Positions 2,142 to 64,000 of a stretch of DNA of 64,000 nt are shown one piece after another. The stretch lies in the sequence record OK335775.1. The stretch is one strand, 5' to 3'. The number at the start of each line of letters is the position of its first letter. Position 1 is the first letter of the stretch. The position numbers were made by a program, and so were the translations under genes. The DNA is from Escherichia phage PSD2002. The notes below the pieces were generated by a model. It was not told the origin of the DNA, did not search any database, and saw nothing but the letters and a program-made list of their open reading frames with translations.

Positions 2142-3565
2142 AAACTATTTTGGCTCAACTGCTAGGCAATAGTGATTATTTCACTAAGGTCTGGCCTTAT
2201 ATGAATGATTCTTATTTTGACCAGGGTCCTGCAAAGACCCTTTTCAAAGAAATTAAAAAACACGTCAATGAATATAATGCAGTGCCTTCTAAGAATGCAT
2301 TAAGCATTGCATTAGATAACAGTACGCTTTCAGAAGTTGAACATCAAGGCGCTAAAGAGCTTTTAAGTTCGCTGAACGCCGGGCCTGAAGACCAAGAATG
2401 GTTGGTTAAAGAGACGGAGAAATACGTTCAGAAAGCAGCGATGTATAATGCAACTTCAAAAATCATTGAAATCCAAACTAATGCCGACCTTCCGGTTGAG
2501 CAACAAAATAGAAAACTTCCAGGTATTGGTGCTATTCCAGATATCATGCGTGATGCATTATCGATTTGTTTCGATTCTGAATTAGGTCATGACTGGATGG
2601 ATGACTATGAAGAACGATTCAAAAGTTATTCCGATAAAGCACGTAAGGTTCCGTTCCGTCTTAATATTCTGAATAAGATTACTAAAGGTGGTGCCGAGTT
2701 TGGTACTGAAAACGTATTGTTGGCAGGAACAAACGTAGGTAAGTCTCTCGGTCTTTGTTCATTGGCTGCTGATTATCTTCAATCTGGTTACGATGTTCTT
2801 TATATCTCCATGGAGATGGCAGAGGAAGTATGTGCTAAGCGTATCGATGCCAACCTTCTGGATGTATCACTGGATGATATCGATGATGGCCACGTCTCGT
2901 GGCCTGAATATAAAGCTAAGATGGATAAATGGCGTTCAACTGCTACTTTAGGTCGTTTAAAGATTAAACAGTATCCTACTGGCGGTGCTAATGCCGATAC
3001 ATTCCGTGCATTATTAAACGAATACAAGCTCAAACAAAACTTTGTCCCACAGGTCGTTATCGTTGACTACTTGGCTATCTGTGCATCGTCTCGTACGAAA
3101 GTTTTCTCTGAAAACAGTTACGGATTGATTAAGATGGTTGCTGAAGAACTACGTGGACTTGCAGTAGAGAAGAAATTACTGTTGTGGACTGCAGCCCAGA
3201 CTACTCGTGGTGCGAACGTTGCAGCCGAAATCGATATGGCCGATATTGCTGAATCCTTTGGTATTGCACATACTGCAGACTTCATGTTGGGTGTGGTCGA
3301 GACAGAAGAGTTCGCTCAGATGGGTATGCAGATGGTTAAGCAGCTTAAATCTCGTTATGGCGATAAGAGCTACTACAACAAATTTAAGATTGGCGTTAAG
3401 AAAGGAAATCAACGTTGGTACGAAGTTGAAGATGATTCCAACCCAGGCCCAGTGAACACTGTTCGTGAGGCTACAGGTGAGATGAATCGCCAGGCCGAGG
3501 TCAATCGACAGACGCGTGTTAATAGAAGTGATTTGGACGATTTAGCAGCATCTATCAAATTTTAA
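2126..3565 (+). CDS. 41: Gp41 replicative DNA helicase (DnaB-like)
   Basis: 479 aa; Walker A GTNVGKS, DnaB-family architecture, N-terminal similarity to T4 gp41; position after 40. Confidence 0.95.
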   Translation: MVEVVETILAQLLGNSDYFTKVWPYMNDSYFDQGPAKTLFKEIKKHVNEYNAVPSKNALSIALDNSTLSEVEHQGAKELLSSLNAGPEDQEWLVKETEKYVQKAAMYNATSKIIEIQTNADLPVEQQNRKLPGIGAIPDIMRDALSICFDSELGHDWMDDYEERFKSYSDKARKVPFRLNILNKITKGGAEFGTENVLLAGTNVGKSLGLCSLAADYLQSGYDVLYISMEMAEEVCAKRIDANLLDVSLDDIDDGHVSWPEYKAKMDKWRSTATLGRLKIKQYPTGGANADTFRALLNEYKLKQNFVPQVVIVDYLAICASSRTKVFSENSYGLIKMVAEELRGLAVEKKLLLWTAAQTTRGANVAAEIDMADIAESFGIAHTADFMLGVVETEEFAQMGMQMVKQLKSRYGDKSYYNKFKIGVKKGNQRWYEVEDDSNPGPVNTVREATGEMNRQAEVNRQTRVNRSDLDDLAASIKF

Positions 3566-10519: not shown

Positions 10520-11089
10520 ATGAACATCGAACAAAAATGTCTTTATCAAGACCGAATCAATTCCAAATTCTCAAAACACGAACAGAATCTTTTAGAAAAA
10601 TGTCTAGATGCTAAAAAGGACCCTAACTTCCATTACGACCTTGATAAGCTAGTTCGTAAGCATGTTACTTCAGCGGTTCCGGTAGAGCTTTATCGTGGGA
10701 TTACCGCTATGGAACTTGAGCAACTTGAAGTTCTTTCTGTTGGGTGCCAGTGGTCTCCTGGCCGGGTTACTTCTTTTAGTACACAATACTCACAGGCTCG
10801 TCAGTTCGCAGGGGCATGGGAATATGGAACCAGAACCATTTTAAGTCTCAGGAATGCACCGTTCATTTTCGACTACTATAACCATGCTATCGACCTTGTT
10901 CTTGCAGGGAATGTGGATGAGCTTGAAATAGATGAAACCCGTATTGACCTCTATGATATGGTTGAAACTGAATGCGAGTTCATGGTCTCCAGCCAATCAC
11001 GATTTGAGATTGTGGAAATCGAAACCGTCAAAAGAGACCCGTACGAAATCGAGTATAAAACAATTCATTTAAAAATGTTGGATTTTTAG
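10520..11089 (+). CDS. ADP-ribosyltransferase, ModA/ModB-like
   Basis: 189 aa; R-S-E class ART signature LYRG ... SFSTQ ... ECEF in correct order and spacing; located between soc and dda where T4 encodes modA/modB. Confidence 0.6.
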   Translation: MNIEQKCLYQDRINSKFSKHEQNLLEKCLDAKKDPNFHYDLDKLVRKHVTSAVPVELYRGITAMELEQLEVLSVGCQWSPGRVTSFSTQYSQARQFAGAWEYGTRTILSLRNAPFIFDYYNHAIDLVLAGNVDELEIDETRIDLYDMVETECEFMVSSQSRFEIVEIETVKRDPYEIEYKTIHLKMLDF

Positions 11090-11143: not shown

Positions 11144-11758
11144 ATGTTATATCCGAGCCATAAATTAGCAGAATTTATCAACAACGCTAAATGCGATGAT
11201 TTCCGTGAGAATACTCAGATAGAAATTGATGAGGTGTATTCTGATTTAGAACAGAGTACCCTCTGGCAGTGCATGGAAAATAAACCAGATTGTATCCAGG
11301 AAACTCTGAACAAAATCATCCGTAAGAACCTGACTTCTGTAGTGCCTGATAAGCTCTATCGCGGCATATCTAAAAAGACTATGAAGTATCTAGAGTCCAC
11401 AATGTGTGTAGGTGCCGTAATTGAATTCGACCGAGTAATGAGCTTCTCTAAAGACTTCAACGTGGCAAGGAATTTTGCATCTTATAACTTCTATGGAACA
11501 TTTAATATCTTTTGTATTAATGATGCGCCATTTGTGTACAATTATCAGGAAGAAATCTTTAAAATGTTATGTGCTGCGCCCCCTGAAGAGTTCCCAGGCG
11601 CATTTCCTGAATCTACCCGTGTAGCAAACTTACAATTAATCAATGATGAAGATGAGATGATGTTCCCTGCGGGAACTACGCTGCGCGTAGACTCTATTGA
11701 GAGAAATCCTAAATGGAATAATTACACCATTTGGAATCTTTCCGTTCTTTCTTACTGA
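11144..11758 (+). CDS. ADP-ribosyltransferase, ModA/ModB-like paralog
   Basis: 204 aa; LYRGI ... MSFSKD ... DEDEMMF; shares the NAPF(I/V) and LYRGI blocks with the upstream ORF. Confidence 0.6.
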   Translation: MLYPSHKLAEFINNAKCDDFRENTQIEIDEVYSDLEQSTLWQCMENKPDCIQETLNKIIRKNLTSVVPDKLYRGISKKTMKYLESTMCVGAVIEFDRVMSFSKDFNVARNFASYNFYGTFNIFCINDAPFVYNYQEEIFKMLCAAPPEEFPGAFPESTRVANLQLINDEDEMMFPAGTTLRVDSIERNPKWNNYTIWNLSVLSY

Positions 11759-58787: not shown

Positions 58788-59329
58788 AAGCAAGCACATA
58801 CCTTCAGATTGCATATCTGATTTCTCAAGAATCAAAATGTTGTTCATGGAAAGTGGGTGCGGTTATCGAAAAGAATGGTCGCATTATCTCTACAGGTTAT
58901 AACGGTTCGCCTTCCGGTGGTGTTAACTGTTGTGACCATGCTGTAGAACAGGACTGGACCCGTGTTGTGTATGACCCGACGCGAATGTCGCATAAATCCG
59001 TTCTTCTTAAAGAACACCGAATGGCTCACGCTGCATGGTCATCTAAAAATGAAATCCATGCCGAACTGAATGCTATTTTGTTTGCAGCTCGTACCGGAAG
59101 TTCTATTGATGGCGCTACGATGTACGTGACATTATCTCCGTGCGCCGATTGTGCTAAGTCTATTGCGCAGTCTGGAATTAAAACATTGGTTTATGCTGAG
59201 CTCTATGACCGAAATCCTGAAGGGTGGGACGATATCCTCCGTGAATCAGGCATCGAAGTTATCCAGTATAATCGTACAGGTCTCCGTTCTTTGAACTGGG
59301 AATCAATTCAAAACTATTGCGGTGAATAA
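58784..59329 (+). CDS. cd: dCMP deaminase
   Basis: 181 aa; cytidine/dCMP deaminase zinc motifs HAELNAI and SPCADCAK. Confidence 0.9.
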   Translation: MKASTYLQIAYLISQESKCCSWKVGAVIEKNGRIISTGYNGSPSGGVNCCDHAVEQDWTRVVYDPTRMSHKSVLLKEHRMAHAAWSSKNEIHAELNAILFAARTGSSIDGATMYVTLSPCADCAKSIAQSGIKTLVYAELYDRNPEGWDDILRESGIEVIQYNRTGLRSLNWESIQNYCGE

Positions 59330-59634
59330 TGAATATTTTATTTGAAAAACCTAAACAAGTGGTTACTGTTGATTACACAGATACATTTATTGATGCTCTT
59401 CTCCAAAAAGGTATCAAATCTATTAAAGTAGGTCCACTTTATGTTATTGAACAGCTTAAAGGCAATTCTACTGGCGAAATTTCGACTCATTCTACTAGTG
59501 ATATCGAATATGTTATCGACCAATTGGTAAATGTAAACCCAGAATTGGTATTAGTCCGTGAAGTTCGTAAAGAAACTCGTGGCGGCGAAACCAAGTATAT
59601 TGTCCGCATTGATTATATAAAAATCGAAGGCTAA
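59329..59634 (+). CDS. Hypothetical protein
   Basis: 101-aa ORF. Confidence 0.4.
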   Translation: MNILFEKPKQVVTVDYTDTFIDALLQKGIKSIKVGPLYVIEQLKGNSTGEISTHSTSDIEYVIDQLVNVNPELVLVREVRKETRGGETKYIVRIDYIKIEG

Positions 59635-59657
59635 GCATCCTAATTGAAGGAAACAAA

Positions 59658-59891
59658 ATGAAATTTCGTTTAGTTAAGTTTTCAGGTCTGAACTCAAAAG
59701 GTGAAAACCTGATAGCTTATTCAGTAGAATATAAAAAGTACTTTTTCTCTCGTTGGAAATCGTACTATAAATCCGAGTGGGTTCGCGCTGAAATGAAATA
59801 TAAAACGGTGCCTATTCTTGATAATTGCCATAGCCTATTAAGAGCTCTAAAAGAGCGTAATGCAACCACTATCAAAACTATTCTGGAATAA
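59658..59891 (+). CDS. Hypothetical small protein
   Basis: 77-aa ORF. Confidence 0.4.
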   Translation: MKFRLVKFSGLNSKGENLIAYSVEYKKYFFSRWKSYYKSEWVRAEMKYKTVPILDNCHSLLRALKERNATTIKTILE

Positions 59892-59893
59892 TT

Positions 59894-60193
59894 ATGATTT
59901 TAACCGAACAAGAAACTATTCGTCTCCGTGAAAAAGTCAAGACTATTTTGTCTGTTGGTTTTCACGAAGTCCTGTTTGAAAAAGCTGATGGTAGTGCCCG
60001 TCGTATGACTTGTACTCGCGACTTAGACCTGCTGCCGTATAAAGAAGTCCAGGCCCCTGGGCCAGAAGCCAATAAAGAATCTGTTAATTATATCAGAGTA
60101 TTTGATACCAAGGTTAATGATTGGCGCTCATTCCGTTTCGATAAGCTGATTTCTATTAACGGCCTTCAGACTGAAACTCTGCTTGTCCTGTAA
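59894..60193 (+). CDS. Hypothetical protein
   Basis: 99-aa ORF. Confidence 0.4.
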   Translation: MILTEQETIRLREKVKTILSVGFHEVLFEKADGSARRMTCTRDLDLLPYKEVQAPGPEANKESVNYIRVFDTKVNDWRSFRFDKLISINGLQTETLLVL

Positions 60194-60251
60194 TATGCTT
60201 TAAGAATAGCGTGTTATTATTAATCTATCAACAAAACAATATGGATTAAAT

Positions 60252-60575
60252 ATGGAACTTCCTATTAAAGCGGTCGGAGAATATGTTATTCTCGTTTCCG
60301 AACCAAAACAAGCCGGTGATGAAGAAACTACTGCATCTGGTATCGTTATTGGCAAACTTCATCAAGGTGAAATCCCTGAACTTTGTGAAATTTATTCTGT
60401 AGGACCTGATGTCCCTGAAGATTTTTGTGAAGTAGGCGATTTGACTCCACTTCCTGTTGGTAAGATTGCTAACGTGCCTCATCCGTTGGTTGCATTGGGT
60501 ATTAAACAACCTAAAGAAATTAAACAAAAATTCGTTACCTGTCACTATAAAGCTATTCCTTGCCTTTATAAGTGA
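60252..60575 (+). CDS. 31: Gp31 co-chaperonin (GroES analogue)
   Basis: 107 aa; [48 protein letters not shown] match T4 gp31. Confidence 0.9.
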
Positions 60576-60583
60576 TATAAATA
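60576..60583 (+). promoter_or_regulatory. Late-promoter-like TATAAATA downstream of gene 31
   Basis: Exact TATAAATA 140 nt upstream of rIII, at the start of an ORF-free structured interval. Confidence 0.35.
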
Positions 60584-60721
60584 ATAATATGGATTGGCTG
60601 CCGGACTAGTTAGTTAACCGGAGAATCCTAAGCGGTGGACTACAACTGAGAGACTTGCCGAAAGGAAGTGAAATTCAGAAGAACGTGTCCACCAATCTTT
60701 ATCTCGAATTGAGAAACTAAA

Positions 60722-60970
60722 ATGAACAAACAATTGAATCACGCTCTTGAACTGCAACGCAACGCTTGGAACAACGGTCACGAAAACTACGGCGCATCTA
60801 TTGATGTTGAGGCCGAAGCACTGGAAATCCTGCGTTATTTCAAACATCTGAATCCTGCTCAGGCTACTCTGGCTGCTGAACTGGAAGCTAAAGATGAACT
60901 GAAATTTGCTAAGCCTTTGGCTTCAGCAGCTCGTAAAGCAGTACGTCATTTTATTATTACCCTGAAGTAA
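60722..60970 (+). CDS. rIII: rIII lysis-inhibition accessory protein
   Basis: 82 aa after gene 31; size and position as T4 rIII. Confidence 0.8.
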   Translation: MNKQLNHALELQRNAWNNGHENYGASIDVEAEALEILRYFKHLNPAQATLAAELEAKDELKFAKPLASAARKAVRHFIITLK

Positions 60971-61232
60971 GTTAAATCGAGGAGCCGTCGAACTGTTTGA
61001 TTAATGATTTGCGAATCATTATAGTTTTAAGACCCCAACAGTTTTACGGTGTACCTCTTGAATGTATTTTGTACTATCACGCGTCAGAAAAAGGTTATCT
61101 GTCTAAGTCGTGGTTGGTATGATGACGAGGTTTATGGTTATCCTGTCGTTAAATATCCTAAACCTATGTTCCCCTTGAGGGCTTGCGCAGGCAACGCCAA
61201 TAAGTCCTGCATCCTAATTTAAGAGATTTAAA

Positions 61233-61394
61233 ATGGCTAAGAAAGAAGTTAAAGTAGTTGACGGTACCTCTAAACGCGCTGGTTACAAGCGTGCGTCCAA
61301 CAAGCGTATCAATCAGGTAGTTGATAAGCTTCAAGCTCGTGCTCGTGCAGTATTGCGTGCAGATGCTGCTTGCTTTGGTAAGCCTCAGGCATAA
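61233..61394 (+). CDS. Hypothetical small basic protein
   Basis: 53-aa ORF below cutoff, Lys/Arg-rich, followed by a strong terminator. Confidence 0.35.
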   Translation: MAKKEVKVVDGTSKRAGYKRASNKRINQVVDKLQARARAVLRADAACFGKPQA

Positions 61395-61399
61395 GTTAT

Positions 61400-61428
61400 G
61401 GGACTCCGAAGAGTCCCATTTTTGTTTC
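61400..61428 (+). terminator. Rho-independent terminator
   Basis: GGGACTC-CGAA-GAGTCCC plus ATTTTTGTTTC. Confidence 0.7.
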
Positions 61429-61445
61429 TAAATCTTTAAAAAAAT

Positions 61446-61474
61446 GGTGTACATCTCCGGTAGGCATGATACTA
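61446..61474 (+). promoter_or_regulatory. Early promoter cassette
   Basis: GTGTAC ... TACTAT followed by the leader ACCAAATAATACGAAAACAAACT, which is repeated at 61925. Confidence 0.5.
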
Positions 61475-61516
61475 TAGACATGTACCAAATAATACGAAAA
61501 CAAACTGGAGAATAAA

Positions 61517-61885
61517 ATGAAAATCAATCTTAACTCATATATCAAATGTAAAGACCACGACGGTTACAAAGCAATCGAAACTAAAGAAATGCAATGGCAC
61601 TTGTACAAAGAACAATTTGAATTTGTAGGTTGCATGACTCCGGAAGGTCCTTCTGATGACTTCTCTTGGAAAATTATGGTAACAAACTTTTTTACCGGTG
61701 ATACCTACGAACTGAAAACTATCATAACCGGTAAGATTCGTTGTAAGACCTATGAAGATGAAGAAACCGGTTATTCTGAAGATGTTACATGGTATCAAAA
61801 TGGTCGCACTACTGCTGATGAGTTGATTGAAAAAATGAAAGCCAAAGGTGAATTAAATTTAGATAATTGGATTAAAGTTGCATAA
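61517..61885 (+). CDS. Hypothetical protein
   Basis: 122-aa ORF after promoter 61446-61474 and GGAGAA. Confidence 0.45.
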   Translation: MKINLNSYIKCKDHDGYKAIETKEMQWHLYKEQFEFVGCMTPEGPSDDFSWKIMVTNFFTGDTYELKTIITGKIRCKTYEDEETGYSEDVTWYQNGRTTADELIEKMKAKGELNLDNWIKVA

Positions 61886-61889
61886 AACA

Positions 61890-61919
61890 GTTTACTTTGG
61901 TACAGGTTGTGTTATTATA
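61890..61919 (+). promoter_or_regulatory. Early promoter cassette
   Basis: GTTTAC ... TATTAT flanked by inverted repeat GGTACAGG/CCTGTACC, then the same leader as at 61475. Confidence 0.55.
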
Positions 61920-61967
61920 GACCTGTACCAAATAATACGAAAACAAACTAAACCAAAGGATAATAAA

Positions 61968-62333
61968 ATGAACTACATCAACTTCGAACGTAAATATGTT
62001 TCTATCGGTGCGGTTGGTTCTAACGAATACATGTGTTTATGGGAGCATAAAAACGGTTCAGTTTGCGAAATCGACCATTGGGTTTCTCCTGATTATGTTT
62101 ATATGCGATTTGAAAATGGTATCACTCTTTCAATCACTAAAGAAGGTTCTTCTTTTAAAATAGCTTTAGATGATGATTTCCGTCAACGTGATTTAGGTAC
62201 TCATCCTTGCTGGAACGGCGTTAATCGTAAGCTTCTGGTTAAAACCTGGATTCGTCACATCCTGAGCAACCGAGCTAAACCTGAACACCTGGAAGCAATC
62301 TTTGATGTAGTTCTGAACGAATTCGATATCTAA
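61968..62333 (+). CDS. Hypothetical protein
   Basis: ATG 61968 after AAGGA; promoter 61890-61919. Confidence 0.45.
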   Translation: MNYINFERKYVSIGAVGSNEYMCLWEHKNGSVCEIDHWVSPDYVYMRFENGITLSITKEGSSFKIALDDDFRQRDLGTHPCWNGVNRKLLVKTWIRHILSNRAKPEHLEAIFDVVLNEFDI

Positions 62334-62375
62334 TCTTAAAAATGGAGGCTTCGGCCTCCTTTGAGGAAAATATTA

Positions 62376-62662
62376 TGTTTATGACCACTTATTTCGATAC
62401 TCGTAAAAATTTCTGTGAAGTTGTTTTCTCTAAAGCAGGTAAAGACGTTCCTGCCGACAAACAACCTACTCGTGAATCTATTAAGGCCTATGCTGATGTT
62501 GTATGCCCTGTAGAATTCCGTACTGTTAATGGTCGTGATACCTTAGCAATCACTAAGCTCAACCGTGATATCAATATCGACCCTAGTGCCGCCCGTGAAG
62601 TCAATACCTCTGACATCTATGGTGGTAATGTTAAATCACACGGCTTTCAGATGAGGTTCTAA
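62376..62662 (+). CDS. Hypothetical protein
   Basis: ATG 62376 after GAGGAAAA. Confidence 0.4.
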
Positions 62663-62856
62663 TGCAACTATTTTTATCGCAAACAGTCCAGTTAAAAGGC
62701 GTAGGTATTCCTGGAATGATTTCCAAGGTTCTACCTGCTTTTAAATTAGGTAATGTTATTATTAAAGAAGCCTACACCGTCTTATGGGTCGATGGAACTG
62801 AAGACGTTCGCATGGGCGGTGAACTGTCTGTAATCAAATGTTTAAAGCGAGGATAA
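62662..62856 (+). CDS. Hypothetical small protein
   Basis: 64-aa ORF. Confidence 0.4.
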   Translation: MQLFLSQTVQLKGVGIPGMISKVLPAFKLGNVIIKEAYTVLWVDGTEDVRMGGELSVIKCLKRG

Positions 62857-62857
62857 T

Positions 62858-63070
62858 ATGTTTAAGAAATTGATTCAGAAATTATTAGGTACGGAAATGG
62901 TCGAAGTGACTTATCGTGTAACTGATTTATCTCCTGTGCATCCACAAGATGAACCATATACTAAAACAATTAAAATGCTGAAATCTGACGGCGGATTATC
63001 TATTAAAGACCGTCTACCTTGTTATGGTCATTGGGCTGATGTAGAGATTATCAGTGTCAAAGATATTTAA
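62858..63070 (+). CDS. Hypothetical small protein, tandem paralog 1
   Basis: 70 aa; shares EVTYRV.DLSP ... SIK(D/E)RLP ... IISVKD with the next ORF. Confidence 0.5.
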   Translation: MFKKLIQKLLGTEMVEVTYRVTDLSPVHPQDEPYTKTIKMLKSDGGLSIKDRLPCYGHWADVEIISVKDI

Positions 63071-63079
63071 GGAGTCTTC

Positions 63080-63292
63080 ATGATTAAGAAATTATTTAAA
63101 AAGCTGTTTGGCTTGGAACTGGTTGAAGTGACTTATCGTGTTATTGATTTATCACCGCCATATGCTTGCGATGAAGATGCTATTAAAACTGTTGTTATGC
63201 GAAAAACATATCGCGGGCAGTCAATTAAAGAAAGATTGCCAGATCATGGCATGTGGTATGCAACCAAGATTATCAGTGTCAAAGATGTCTGA
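63080..63292 (+). CDS. Hypothetical small protein, tandem paralog 2
   Basis: 70 aa; same conserved blocks as the preceding ORF. Confidence 0.5.
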   Translation: MIKKLFKKLFGLELVEVTYRVIDLSPPYACDEDAIKTVVMRKTYRGQSIKERLPDHGMWYATKIISVKDV

Positions 63293-63743
63293 GTTAGAAA
63301 TCAGAAGTAATTTTCCGTGGCCATCGTGTGCATTAAGTAACTTTGCTAAATGGCCTTTCGTTATGGATGGTATCCAATTTGGAGGGCTCGAAGGATTCCT
63401 CCAAGGGTGTAAGGTGAGAAATCATGAACAACAAAAACGTATATTTGGGATGTCCGGTCTGGCCGCACAACAAACTGGAAGAGCTTATGCAAGAGCTGCG
63501 GACCGTGGGACGCTTTTCTGGCTTGGAATTCCCTTTTCAAGATACTCTACATCATGGAAAGAGTTGTATACAAATGCATATTTTGAAGCAGCGCTCCAAA
63601 ACAAAGGATTCCGCGACGCATTACAAGCTACAAAGGGCAAAGTTTTAAAGCATTCGATGGCGAGTCACCTTACAGAATGTGATACAATACTAACTGAAAA
63701 AGAGTTTATCGACATCCTAAACAAATTGAGAGATTTATTATGA
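63285..63743 (+). CDS. NADAR/YbiA-like domain protein (putative N-glycosidase or ADP-ribosyl hydrolase)
   Basis: 152 aa from ATG 63285; N-terminal F.W.S.ALSNFA...F...G..F...E motif typical of NADAR/DUF1768. Confidence 0.45.
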   Translation: MSELEIRSNFPWPSCALSNFAKWPFVMDGIQFGGLEGFLQGCKVRNHEQQKRIFGMSGLAAQQTGRAYARAADRGTLFWLGIPFSRYSTSWKELYTNAYFEAALQNKGFRDALQATKGKVLKHSMASHLTECDTILTEKEFIDILNKLRDLL

Positions 63744-64000
63744 AACCAGTTATCTTAACAGATATCGATGGAGTATGTTTAAGTTGGCAGTCCGGCTTGC
63801 CTTATTTCGCACAGAAATATAATTTGCCTTTAGAACATATTTTGAATATGATTCAGGACGAACGTTTCTTATCTCCTGGTGAGCTGTTTAATTGTGATAA
63901 TGAATTAGGCGCTCGTTTAATCGAGAAGTACAATCAGTCAGATTTTATTCGTTATCTGTCTCCTTACATGGACGCATTAAAACATATCAACAAGCTCAAA
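63743..64000 (+). CDS. Hypothetical protein, 3'-truncated by window end (HAD-like N-terminus)
   Basis: ORF beginning MKPVILTDIDGV (HAD phosphatase-like DxDG motif); runs off the window. Confidence 0.4.

Follow-up and report, generated by a model that had tools for sequence, protein, structure and literature searches.

What does the small open reading frame at positions 63285-63743 of the window (the whole stretch of 64,000 nucleotides analysed from the Escherichia phage PSD2002 record OK335775.1) encode, and whose ADP-ribosylation, if any, would its product undo? An earlier note on this DNA had read the ORF as NADAR/YbiA-like and had offered two roles for it, namely the reversal of an ADP-ribosylating host defence or participation in the phage's own ADP-ribosylation programme alongside its ART paralogs.

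Reading frame of the ORF and orthology to T4 gene 30.3

According to the ORF listing of the window, the frame runs on the + strand from the ATG at 63285 to the TGA at 63741-63743 and encodes 152 amino acids. The ORF is real and its coordinates had been given exactly in the earlier note; the peptide quoted there, FPWPSCALSNFAKWPFVMDGIQFGGLEGFLQ, corresponds to residues 10-40. BLASTP against T4 gp30.3 (NP_049816) aligns proteins of equal length without gaps, with 130 of 152 residues identical (86%). The protein matches the Pfam family PF08010 (Phage_30_3) along profile positions 2-138 of 138 (E=3.6e-64; score 215.1 bits, cut-off 36), as well as PHROG 652, which is annotated 'unknown function'. 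Megablast of positions 62800-64000 finds 99.2-99.7% identity to the Escherichia phages LHE83 and WG01 and to Salmonella phage ABTNLS3, and the protein itself is identical in LHE83, a member of the genus Dhakavirus (Tevenvirinae). The gene order of LHE83 is that of T4, i.e., cd, 31, rIII, 30.9 and onwards to 30.4, 30.3, 30.2 and 30.1 (DUF3045), followed by a 507-aa ORF at the position of the DNA ligase gene, so that the order 30.4-30.3-30.2-30.1-ligase is conserved with T4. Judged from these sequence comparisons, the window belongs to a T4-like Dhakavirus and the ORF is a syntenic orthologue of T4 gene 30.3, renamed adfN in T4; we use this name for the whole feature (63285..63743, + strand, stop codon included), the product of which is a predicted NADAR-fold DNA ADP-ribosylglycohydrolase of 152 aa.

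Compared with T4 30.3, adfN shows 81% nucleotide identity, 53 of the 86 differences falling at third codon positions, and a dN/dS of 0.11, which indicates that the frame is under purifying selection. The stop codon of the upstream gene overlaps the adfN ATG (ATGTCTGA), and the adfN stop is shared with the start of the next gene as an ATGA at 63740; overlapping stop and start codons of this kind are typical of the tight packing of T4 early genes.

Two other reading frames at the locus were considered and rejected. Upstream of its ATG, the adfN frame continues without a stop as far as a GTG at 63138 (63138-63743, + strand), giving an in-frame version of 201 aa that runs back, in a different frame, through the second of two copies of gene 30.4. 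This version was discarded because of that overlap and because the family alignment begins at the 63285 ATG. It may be mentioned that the T4 gp30.3 construct of PMC11125620 is described as 'residues 1-208', while the RefSeq T4 protein has 152 aa. The internal ORF 30.3′, annotated in T4, lies in the window at 63424-63648 (+ strand), in the +1 frame inside adfN, and spans 74 codons; it was not retained as a supported gene. An ORF of this length appears in 6-24% of synonymous-codon shuffles of adfN, 30.3′ is missing from five of six distant homologues, and synonymous change between adfN and T4 amounts to 22/65 inside the overlap and 22/65 outside it.

Homologues of 30.3 were found by tblastn in 1510 of 50,697 phage records, mostly among Straboviridae of Escherichia, Klebsiella, Shigella, Aeromonas, Acinetobacter and Vibrio, and also in some jumbo phages of Caulobacter and Brevundimonas. 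A blastn search of complete E. coli genomes returned no nucleotide match to adfN, and hence no prophage or host copies among them. The position of the gene varies. In phiR1-RT (locus L005), Aeromonas phage 31.2 (L006) and Klebsiella phage KP182 (L009), a 30.3 homologue of about 40% identity (around 3001-3450 of each locus) is found inside a tRNA gene cluster and not beside the DNA ligase gene. The genera with the NADAR gene in the tRNA cluster are Jiaodavirus, Biquartavirus and Tegunavirus. In Caulobacter phage CcrColossus (L007) the homologue adjoins an RNA ligase gene. The 30.3/AdfN gene has thus changed place within the family.

Neighbouring genes and expression signals

Upstream of adfN lie two tandem paralogues of T4 gene 30.4 (62858-63070 and 63080-63292, both on the + strand), each encoding 70 aa. 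The two copies share 57% identity with one another, as against 44% and 28% with T4 gp30.4, and neither matches a Pfam family. The second copy overlaps the adfN start codon and is translationally coupled to adfN. T4 carries a single 30.4 copy; the duplication of this upstream gene thus distinguishes the PSD2002 locus from that of T4. In several close relatives (QL01, IME281 and PSD9), the megablast match falls into two pieces and extends over no more than 83% of the 1.2-kb query, which could mean that these phages also have a single copy. No 30.4 homologue adjoins the NADAR gene in the distant phages.

Downstream, adfN is translationally coupled through the shared ATGA to the 5′ end of a gene 30.2 orthologue (63740..64000, + strand, cut by the window end), the product of which is HAD-like, with the HAD motif I DIDGV (LTDIDGV). 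Its first 86 aa show no difference from LHE83 30.2, and their identity to T4 gp30.2 is 86%. The full-length gene of LHE83 (locus L002, 5941-6579) gives a sub-threshold match to NT5C (5′-nucleotidase) and encodes 212 aa, as against 278 aa in T4. In Acinetobacter phage KARL-1, too, the NADAR gene is followed by a 30.2 homologue (49% identity), and an unrelated but clear NT5C-type gene is located directly after NADAR in Vibrio phage Va3; the pairing of a NADAR with a HAD phosphatase may be recurrent. Homologues of 30.2 occur in 1447 phage records, compared with the 1510 for 30.3, and in the same genera. Since both are near-core genes of the Straboviridae, this co-occurrence is uninformative as to a functional link.

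Within positions 59000-64000, the scan for promoters and terminators returned 14 promoter-like sites where shuffled sequences give an expected 14.5, and it therefore says nothing about early or middle expression. A strong terminator-like hairpin, with a 9-bp stem containing five GC pairs and followed by a T-run, was observed at 61398-61419 (+ strand), just before the orthologue of gene 30.7 (61517-61885), and a weak promoter-like site follows it at 61466-61493. This hairpin may mark the boundary of a transcription unit inside the 30.x cluster.

NADAR fold, catalytic residues and known relatives

Membership of AdfN in the NADAR superfamily is not apparent from direct profile searches. Using hmmscan against Pfam at E<=10, PF08010 was the only family reported, with no match to PF08719 (NADAR). 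AdfN also had no match among the PADLOC models, and the only NCBIfam match was TIGR02464 at 13 bits, under its cut-off of 73.7. The earlier note had itself counted a missing NADAR profile match against its call, and no direct match was indeed obtained; this outcome arises because the gp30.3 clade has a Pfam family of its own, and not because AdfN is unrelated. The NADAR link consequently rests on remote homology and structural evidence. Fifteen of the 62 members of the family do match PF08719 (best E=1.5e-7), and JGI gives several metagenomic relatives the name 'YbiA (DUF1768 family)'. Against PDB sequences, phmmer reached YbiA at E=1.2 only, a marginal match that made the fold search and hhalign necessary for a firm link, whereas a profile of the family ranked YbiA first (E=0.027). 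Alignment of the 62-sequence family to E. coli YbiA by hhalign gave E=2.9e-6 and a probability of 88% over 95 columns.

The AlphaFold model of AdfN, built from a 61-sequence alignment from which the T4 sequence was left out, has a pLDDT of 95.4 and a pTM of 0.90, and shows a YbiA-like alpha+beta fold in which a helical core is flanked by two small beta-sheets. The top three PDB structures found by Foldseek are 2B3W (YbiA), 8BAU (a Phytophthora NADAR with ADP-ribose) and 8BAT (the NADAR/DarG1 of Geobacter lovleyi), all others having E>4. The structure prediction that had been proposed as a check thus leads to NADAR structures only. Together with the hhalign result and the PF08719 matches among the relatives, it bears out the NADAR/YbiA-like assignment, and the placement of AdfN in the gp30.3 family, and through it in the NADAR superfamily, is secure.

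The residues that a functional NADAR of this type would need are in place. The codons of Ser18-Asn19-Phe20 (63336..63344, + strand) form the (L)SNF motif common to YbiA (FSNFA), are invariant in the 62 members and align with YbiA residues 29-33 in both phmmer and hhalign. The catalytic Glu36 (codon GAA, 63390..63392) is likewise invariant in the 62 sequences, occupies the identical position in T4, where it is AdfN E36, corresponds to E43 of PnNADAR and aligns with the Glu of YbiA SEHYFQAQK. Lys43 (codon AAG, 63411..63413; K43 in T4 AdfN, K50 in PnNADAR), the phosphate-binding catalytic lysine, is also invariant and aligned to the YbiA Lys; it lies seven residues after Glu36, the same spacing as between E43 and K50 of PnNADAR. 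His123 (codon CAT, 63651..63653) is located on the last beta-strand (predicted strand 120-122/123), is invariant in the 62 members and serves as a marker of the phage gp30.3 class; it comes to stand opposite YbiA E125 once the hhalign alignment is extended by one column. All these codons are on the + strand. The catalytic residues that the earlier note had wished to see in an alignment, E36, K43 and H123, are accordingly present throughout the family. In PnNADAR, E43, K50 and E125 line the ADP-ribose site; at the third of these positions, that of AdfN His123, NADARs linked to DarT1 carry Asp and those of phages carry His (Schuller et al. 2023, PMC11543638). In T4 AdfN, E36A is inactive in vitro, and both E36A and K43A impair function (PMC11825919). 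As a separate observation, in the homologue of Acinetobacter phage KARL-1 (L004 3001-3483) the place of the catalytic Lys43 is taken by Arg (TEGFLQGLR); in the E. coli C7 NADAR, the K95R mutant is reported to retain hydrolysis in vitro while losing antitoxin function (PMC11543638).

The C-terminal alpha-helix (residues 138-151, 63696..63737, + strand) is predicted with a pLDDT of 96-98, is intact and is collinear with T4 to the last residue. In RB69, which is naturally sensitive to DarTG1, a frameshift removes the last 15 residues, i.e., the C-terminal helix, and activity is lost (PMC11825919).

AdfN may be compared with four groups of relatives. Its likeness to T4 gp30.3/AdfN extends from the sequence identity and equal length to the place between 30.4 and 30.2, the retention of E36, K43 and H123 and the intact C-terminal helix, the proteins being set apart by 22 substitutions. 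By analogy, AdfN would work like DarG1, the DarT1-linked NADAR (BC4488; G. lovleyi 8BAT), but as an orphan, and is not a DarG1 in the strict sense. DarG1 adjoins the DarT1 toxin gene, whereas adfN is flanked by the 30.4 paralogues and the HAD-like 30.2, with no ART domain in either. DarG1 also carries an N-terminal beta-beta-alpha extension proposed to bind ssDNA, while AdfN in its predicted structure starts directly with the core; the catalytic residue of DarG1 on the last strand is Asp and not His; and DarG1 is an antitoxin, a role that T4 AdfN does not fulfil in uninfected cells. With E. coli YbiA (2B3W) and the Phytophthora NADAR (8BAU), AdfN shares only 18-20% identity, and where these have Glu on the last strand it has His. 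YbiA is a riboflavin-intermediate N-glycosidase encoded in a LexA-controlled operon and is not a phage counter-defence protein. Functionally, AdfN(Bas32) and AdfN(Bas60) of T5-like and Vequintavirinae phages are likewise phage-borne orphan NADARs that neutralise DarTG1, but they belong to other NADAR clades, were independently acquired and work without a T-even-specific cofactor (PMC11825919).

Probable counteraction of DarTG1 and alternative roles

The function of the T4 protein is already known and has been characterised experimentally; published experiments on T4 AdfN are the source for its enzymatic activity, for its specificity for guanine, and for the finding that it is both necessary and sufficient against DarTG1. 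NADARs hydrolyse guanine-linked ADP-ribose (Schuller et al. 2023, PMC11543638). The NADARs of phages have been termed 'gp30.3 proteins' (2024 Toxins, PMC11125620), and in the same work T4 gp30.3 removed guanosine-ADPr and not thymidine-ADPr in vitro, and did not rescue uninfected cells from DarT1 toxicity (PMC11125620). In T-even phages, resistance to DarTG1 was then mapped to gene 30.3, which was renamed adfN for 'anti-DarT factor NADAR' (Johannesman et al. 2025, PMC11825919). Ectopic adfN(T4) rescues RB69, T4 or T2 from which adfN has been deleted no longer plates on DarTG1 hosts, and purified T4 AdfN strips ADP-ribose off DarT1-modified DNA (PMC11825919). AdfN is in this sense necessary and sufficient for T-even resistance to DarTG1 (PMC11825919).

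What is established here is that the PSD2002 gene is a full-length, syntenic orthologue, the product of which has the NADAR fold and retains the catalytic residues. By analogy with the 86%-identical T4 protein, from which it differs at 22 of 152 positions, we infer that the PSD2002 allele has the same activity. The ORF is very probably the Dhakavirus orthologue of T4 adfN acting as an orphan, antitoxin-like enzyme against DarTG1, through a mechanism that can be outlined as follows. AdfN would be made early in infection, from a co-directional cluster of tightly overlapping small genes. Host DarT1 of the DarTG1 system would ADP-ribosylate guanines in the phage DNA and block its replication. The ADP-ribose moiety would be bound by AdfN in the pocket of the YbiA/NADAR fold formed by Glu36, Lys43 and His123, and hydrolysis of the N-glycosidic bond between guanine and ADP-ribose would return unmodified DNA on which replication proceeds. 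The anti-defence option of the earlier note is supported by the demonstration that the T4 orthologue removes the ADP-ribose which DarT1 places on guanines of phage DNA (PMC11825919): the function had been guessed correctly, but the ORF had been recognised neither as T4 gene 30.3 nor as one whose function was already demonstrated.

Full activity of T4 AdfN requires a further T-even factor (PMC11825919), and since T4 AdfN by itself does not counteract DarT1 in E. coli that is not infected, the enzyme depends on some T-even background. It is conceivable, though unlikely, that the potentiating factor is one of the coupled neighbours gp30.2 or gp30.4, a suggestion based on their adjacency and on the overlapping stop and start codons; 30.4-30.3-30.2 would in that case act as a functional counter-defence module.

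The second option of the earlier note assigns AdfN to the phage's own ADP-ribosylation programme, where it would reverse or tune the modification by Alt, ModA or ModB of host proteins (arginine-ADPr) or RNA. Its 'ART paralogs' are two adjacent ModA/ModB-like ADP-ribosyltransferase genes at 10520-11089 and 11144-11758 (+ strand), which show 33-35% identity to T4 ModA/ModB by tblastn, one of them with only a faint Pfam DRAT match. Besides the presence of these paralogues in the window, the proximity of 30.3 to alt (a few kb apart in T4-like genomes) and the early expression of T4-like phage NADARs along with ARTs (Iyer et al., PMC9503650) are in keeping with such a role. However, the mod genes lie 52 kb from adfN and are not co-located with it, alt is past the window end, and the NADARs assayed in PMC11125620, T4 gp30.3 included, showed activity only on guanine-linked ADP-ribose in DNA, with none on thymidine-ADPr and none reported on protein-linked ADP-ribose. 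Moreover, the phenotype of adfN deletion in T4 and T2 is a specific loss of DarTG1 resistance (PMC11825919). This option is left unsupported by the distance of the paralogues and the activity on DNA guanosine-ADPr, and we regard it as very improbable.

It has also been proposed, on contextual grounds, that phage NADARs act on soluble substrates (PMC9503650). AdfN would then degrade not adducts on DNA but soluble molecules derived from ADP-ribose, for instance nucleotides used in immune signalling or RNA-repair by-products. That 30.3 homologues of other Straboviridae lie in tRNA clusters or close to RNA ligase genes fits this proposal, as does the putative nucleotidase encoded by the downstream HAD-like 30.2. 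Yet de-ADP-ribosylation of DNA has been shown directly for the T4 protein and explains the phenotype (PMC11825919), so that activity on soluble substrates would be at most additional; as a replacement for the DNA-directed role, this proposal has just as slim a chance as an involvement with Alt and the Mod enzymes. In the least credible reading, AdfN is a housekeeping N-glycosidase of the YbiA type that clears reactive intermediates of the riboflavin pathway. In its favour are the fold, which is that of E. coli YbiA, and the weak TIGR02464 match. This match falls far under its cut-off, however, AdfN has His123 in place of the family-defining Glu of YbiA, it is not evident why a lytic phage should need such a function, and the genetics point to DarTG1 (PMC11825919).

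Counteraction of DarTG1 accordingly stands as the preferred role, although the natural substrates of AdfN may extend beyond the products of DarT1. In T4-like phages, adfN is an orphan homologue of a bacterial antitoxin, carried by the phage itself, which undoes the DNA ADP-ribosylation imposed by a toxin-antitoxin defence. Because this principle was published for T4 gp30.3 (AdfN) between 2023 and 2025, the window adds only another orthologue to it. In the matched annotated phage records, adfN is labelled 'hypothetical protein' almost everywhere, being named only in JS10 ('30.3: hypothetical protein') and phiR1-RT ('gp30.3'), and nearly all of the LHE83 genes listed above, from cd onwards, bear the same label. 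The practical value of the identification lies in the annotation of adfN, now carried as 'hypothetical protein'.
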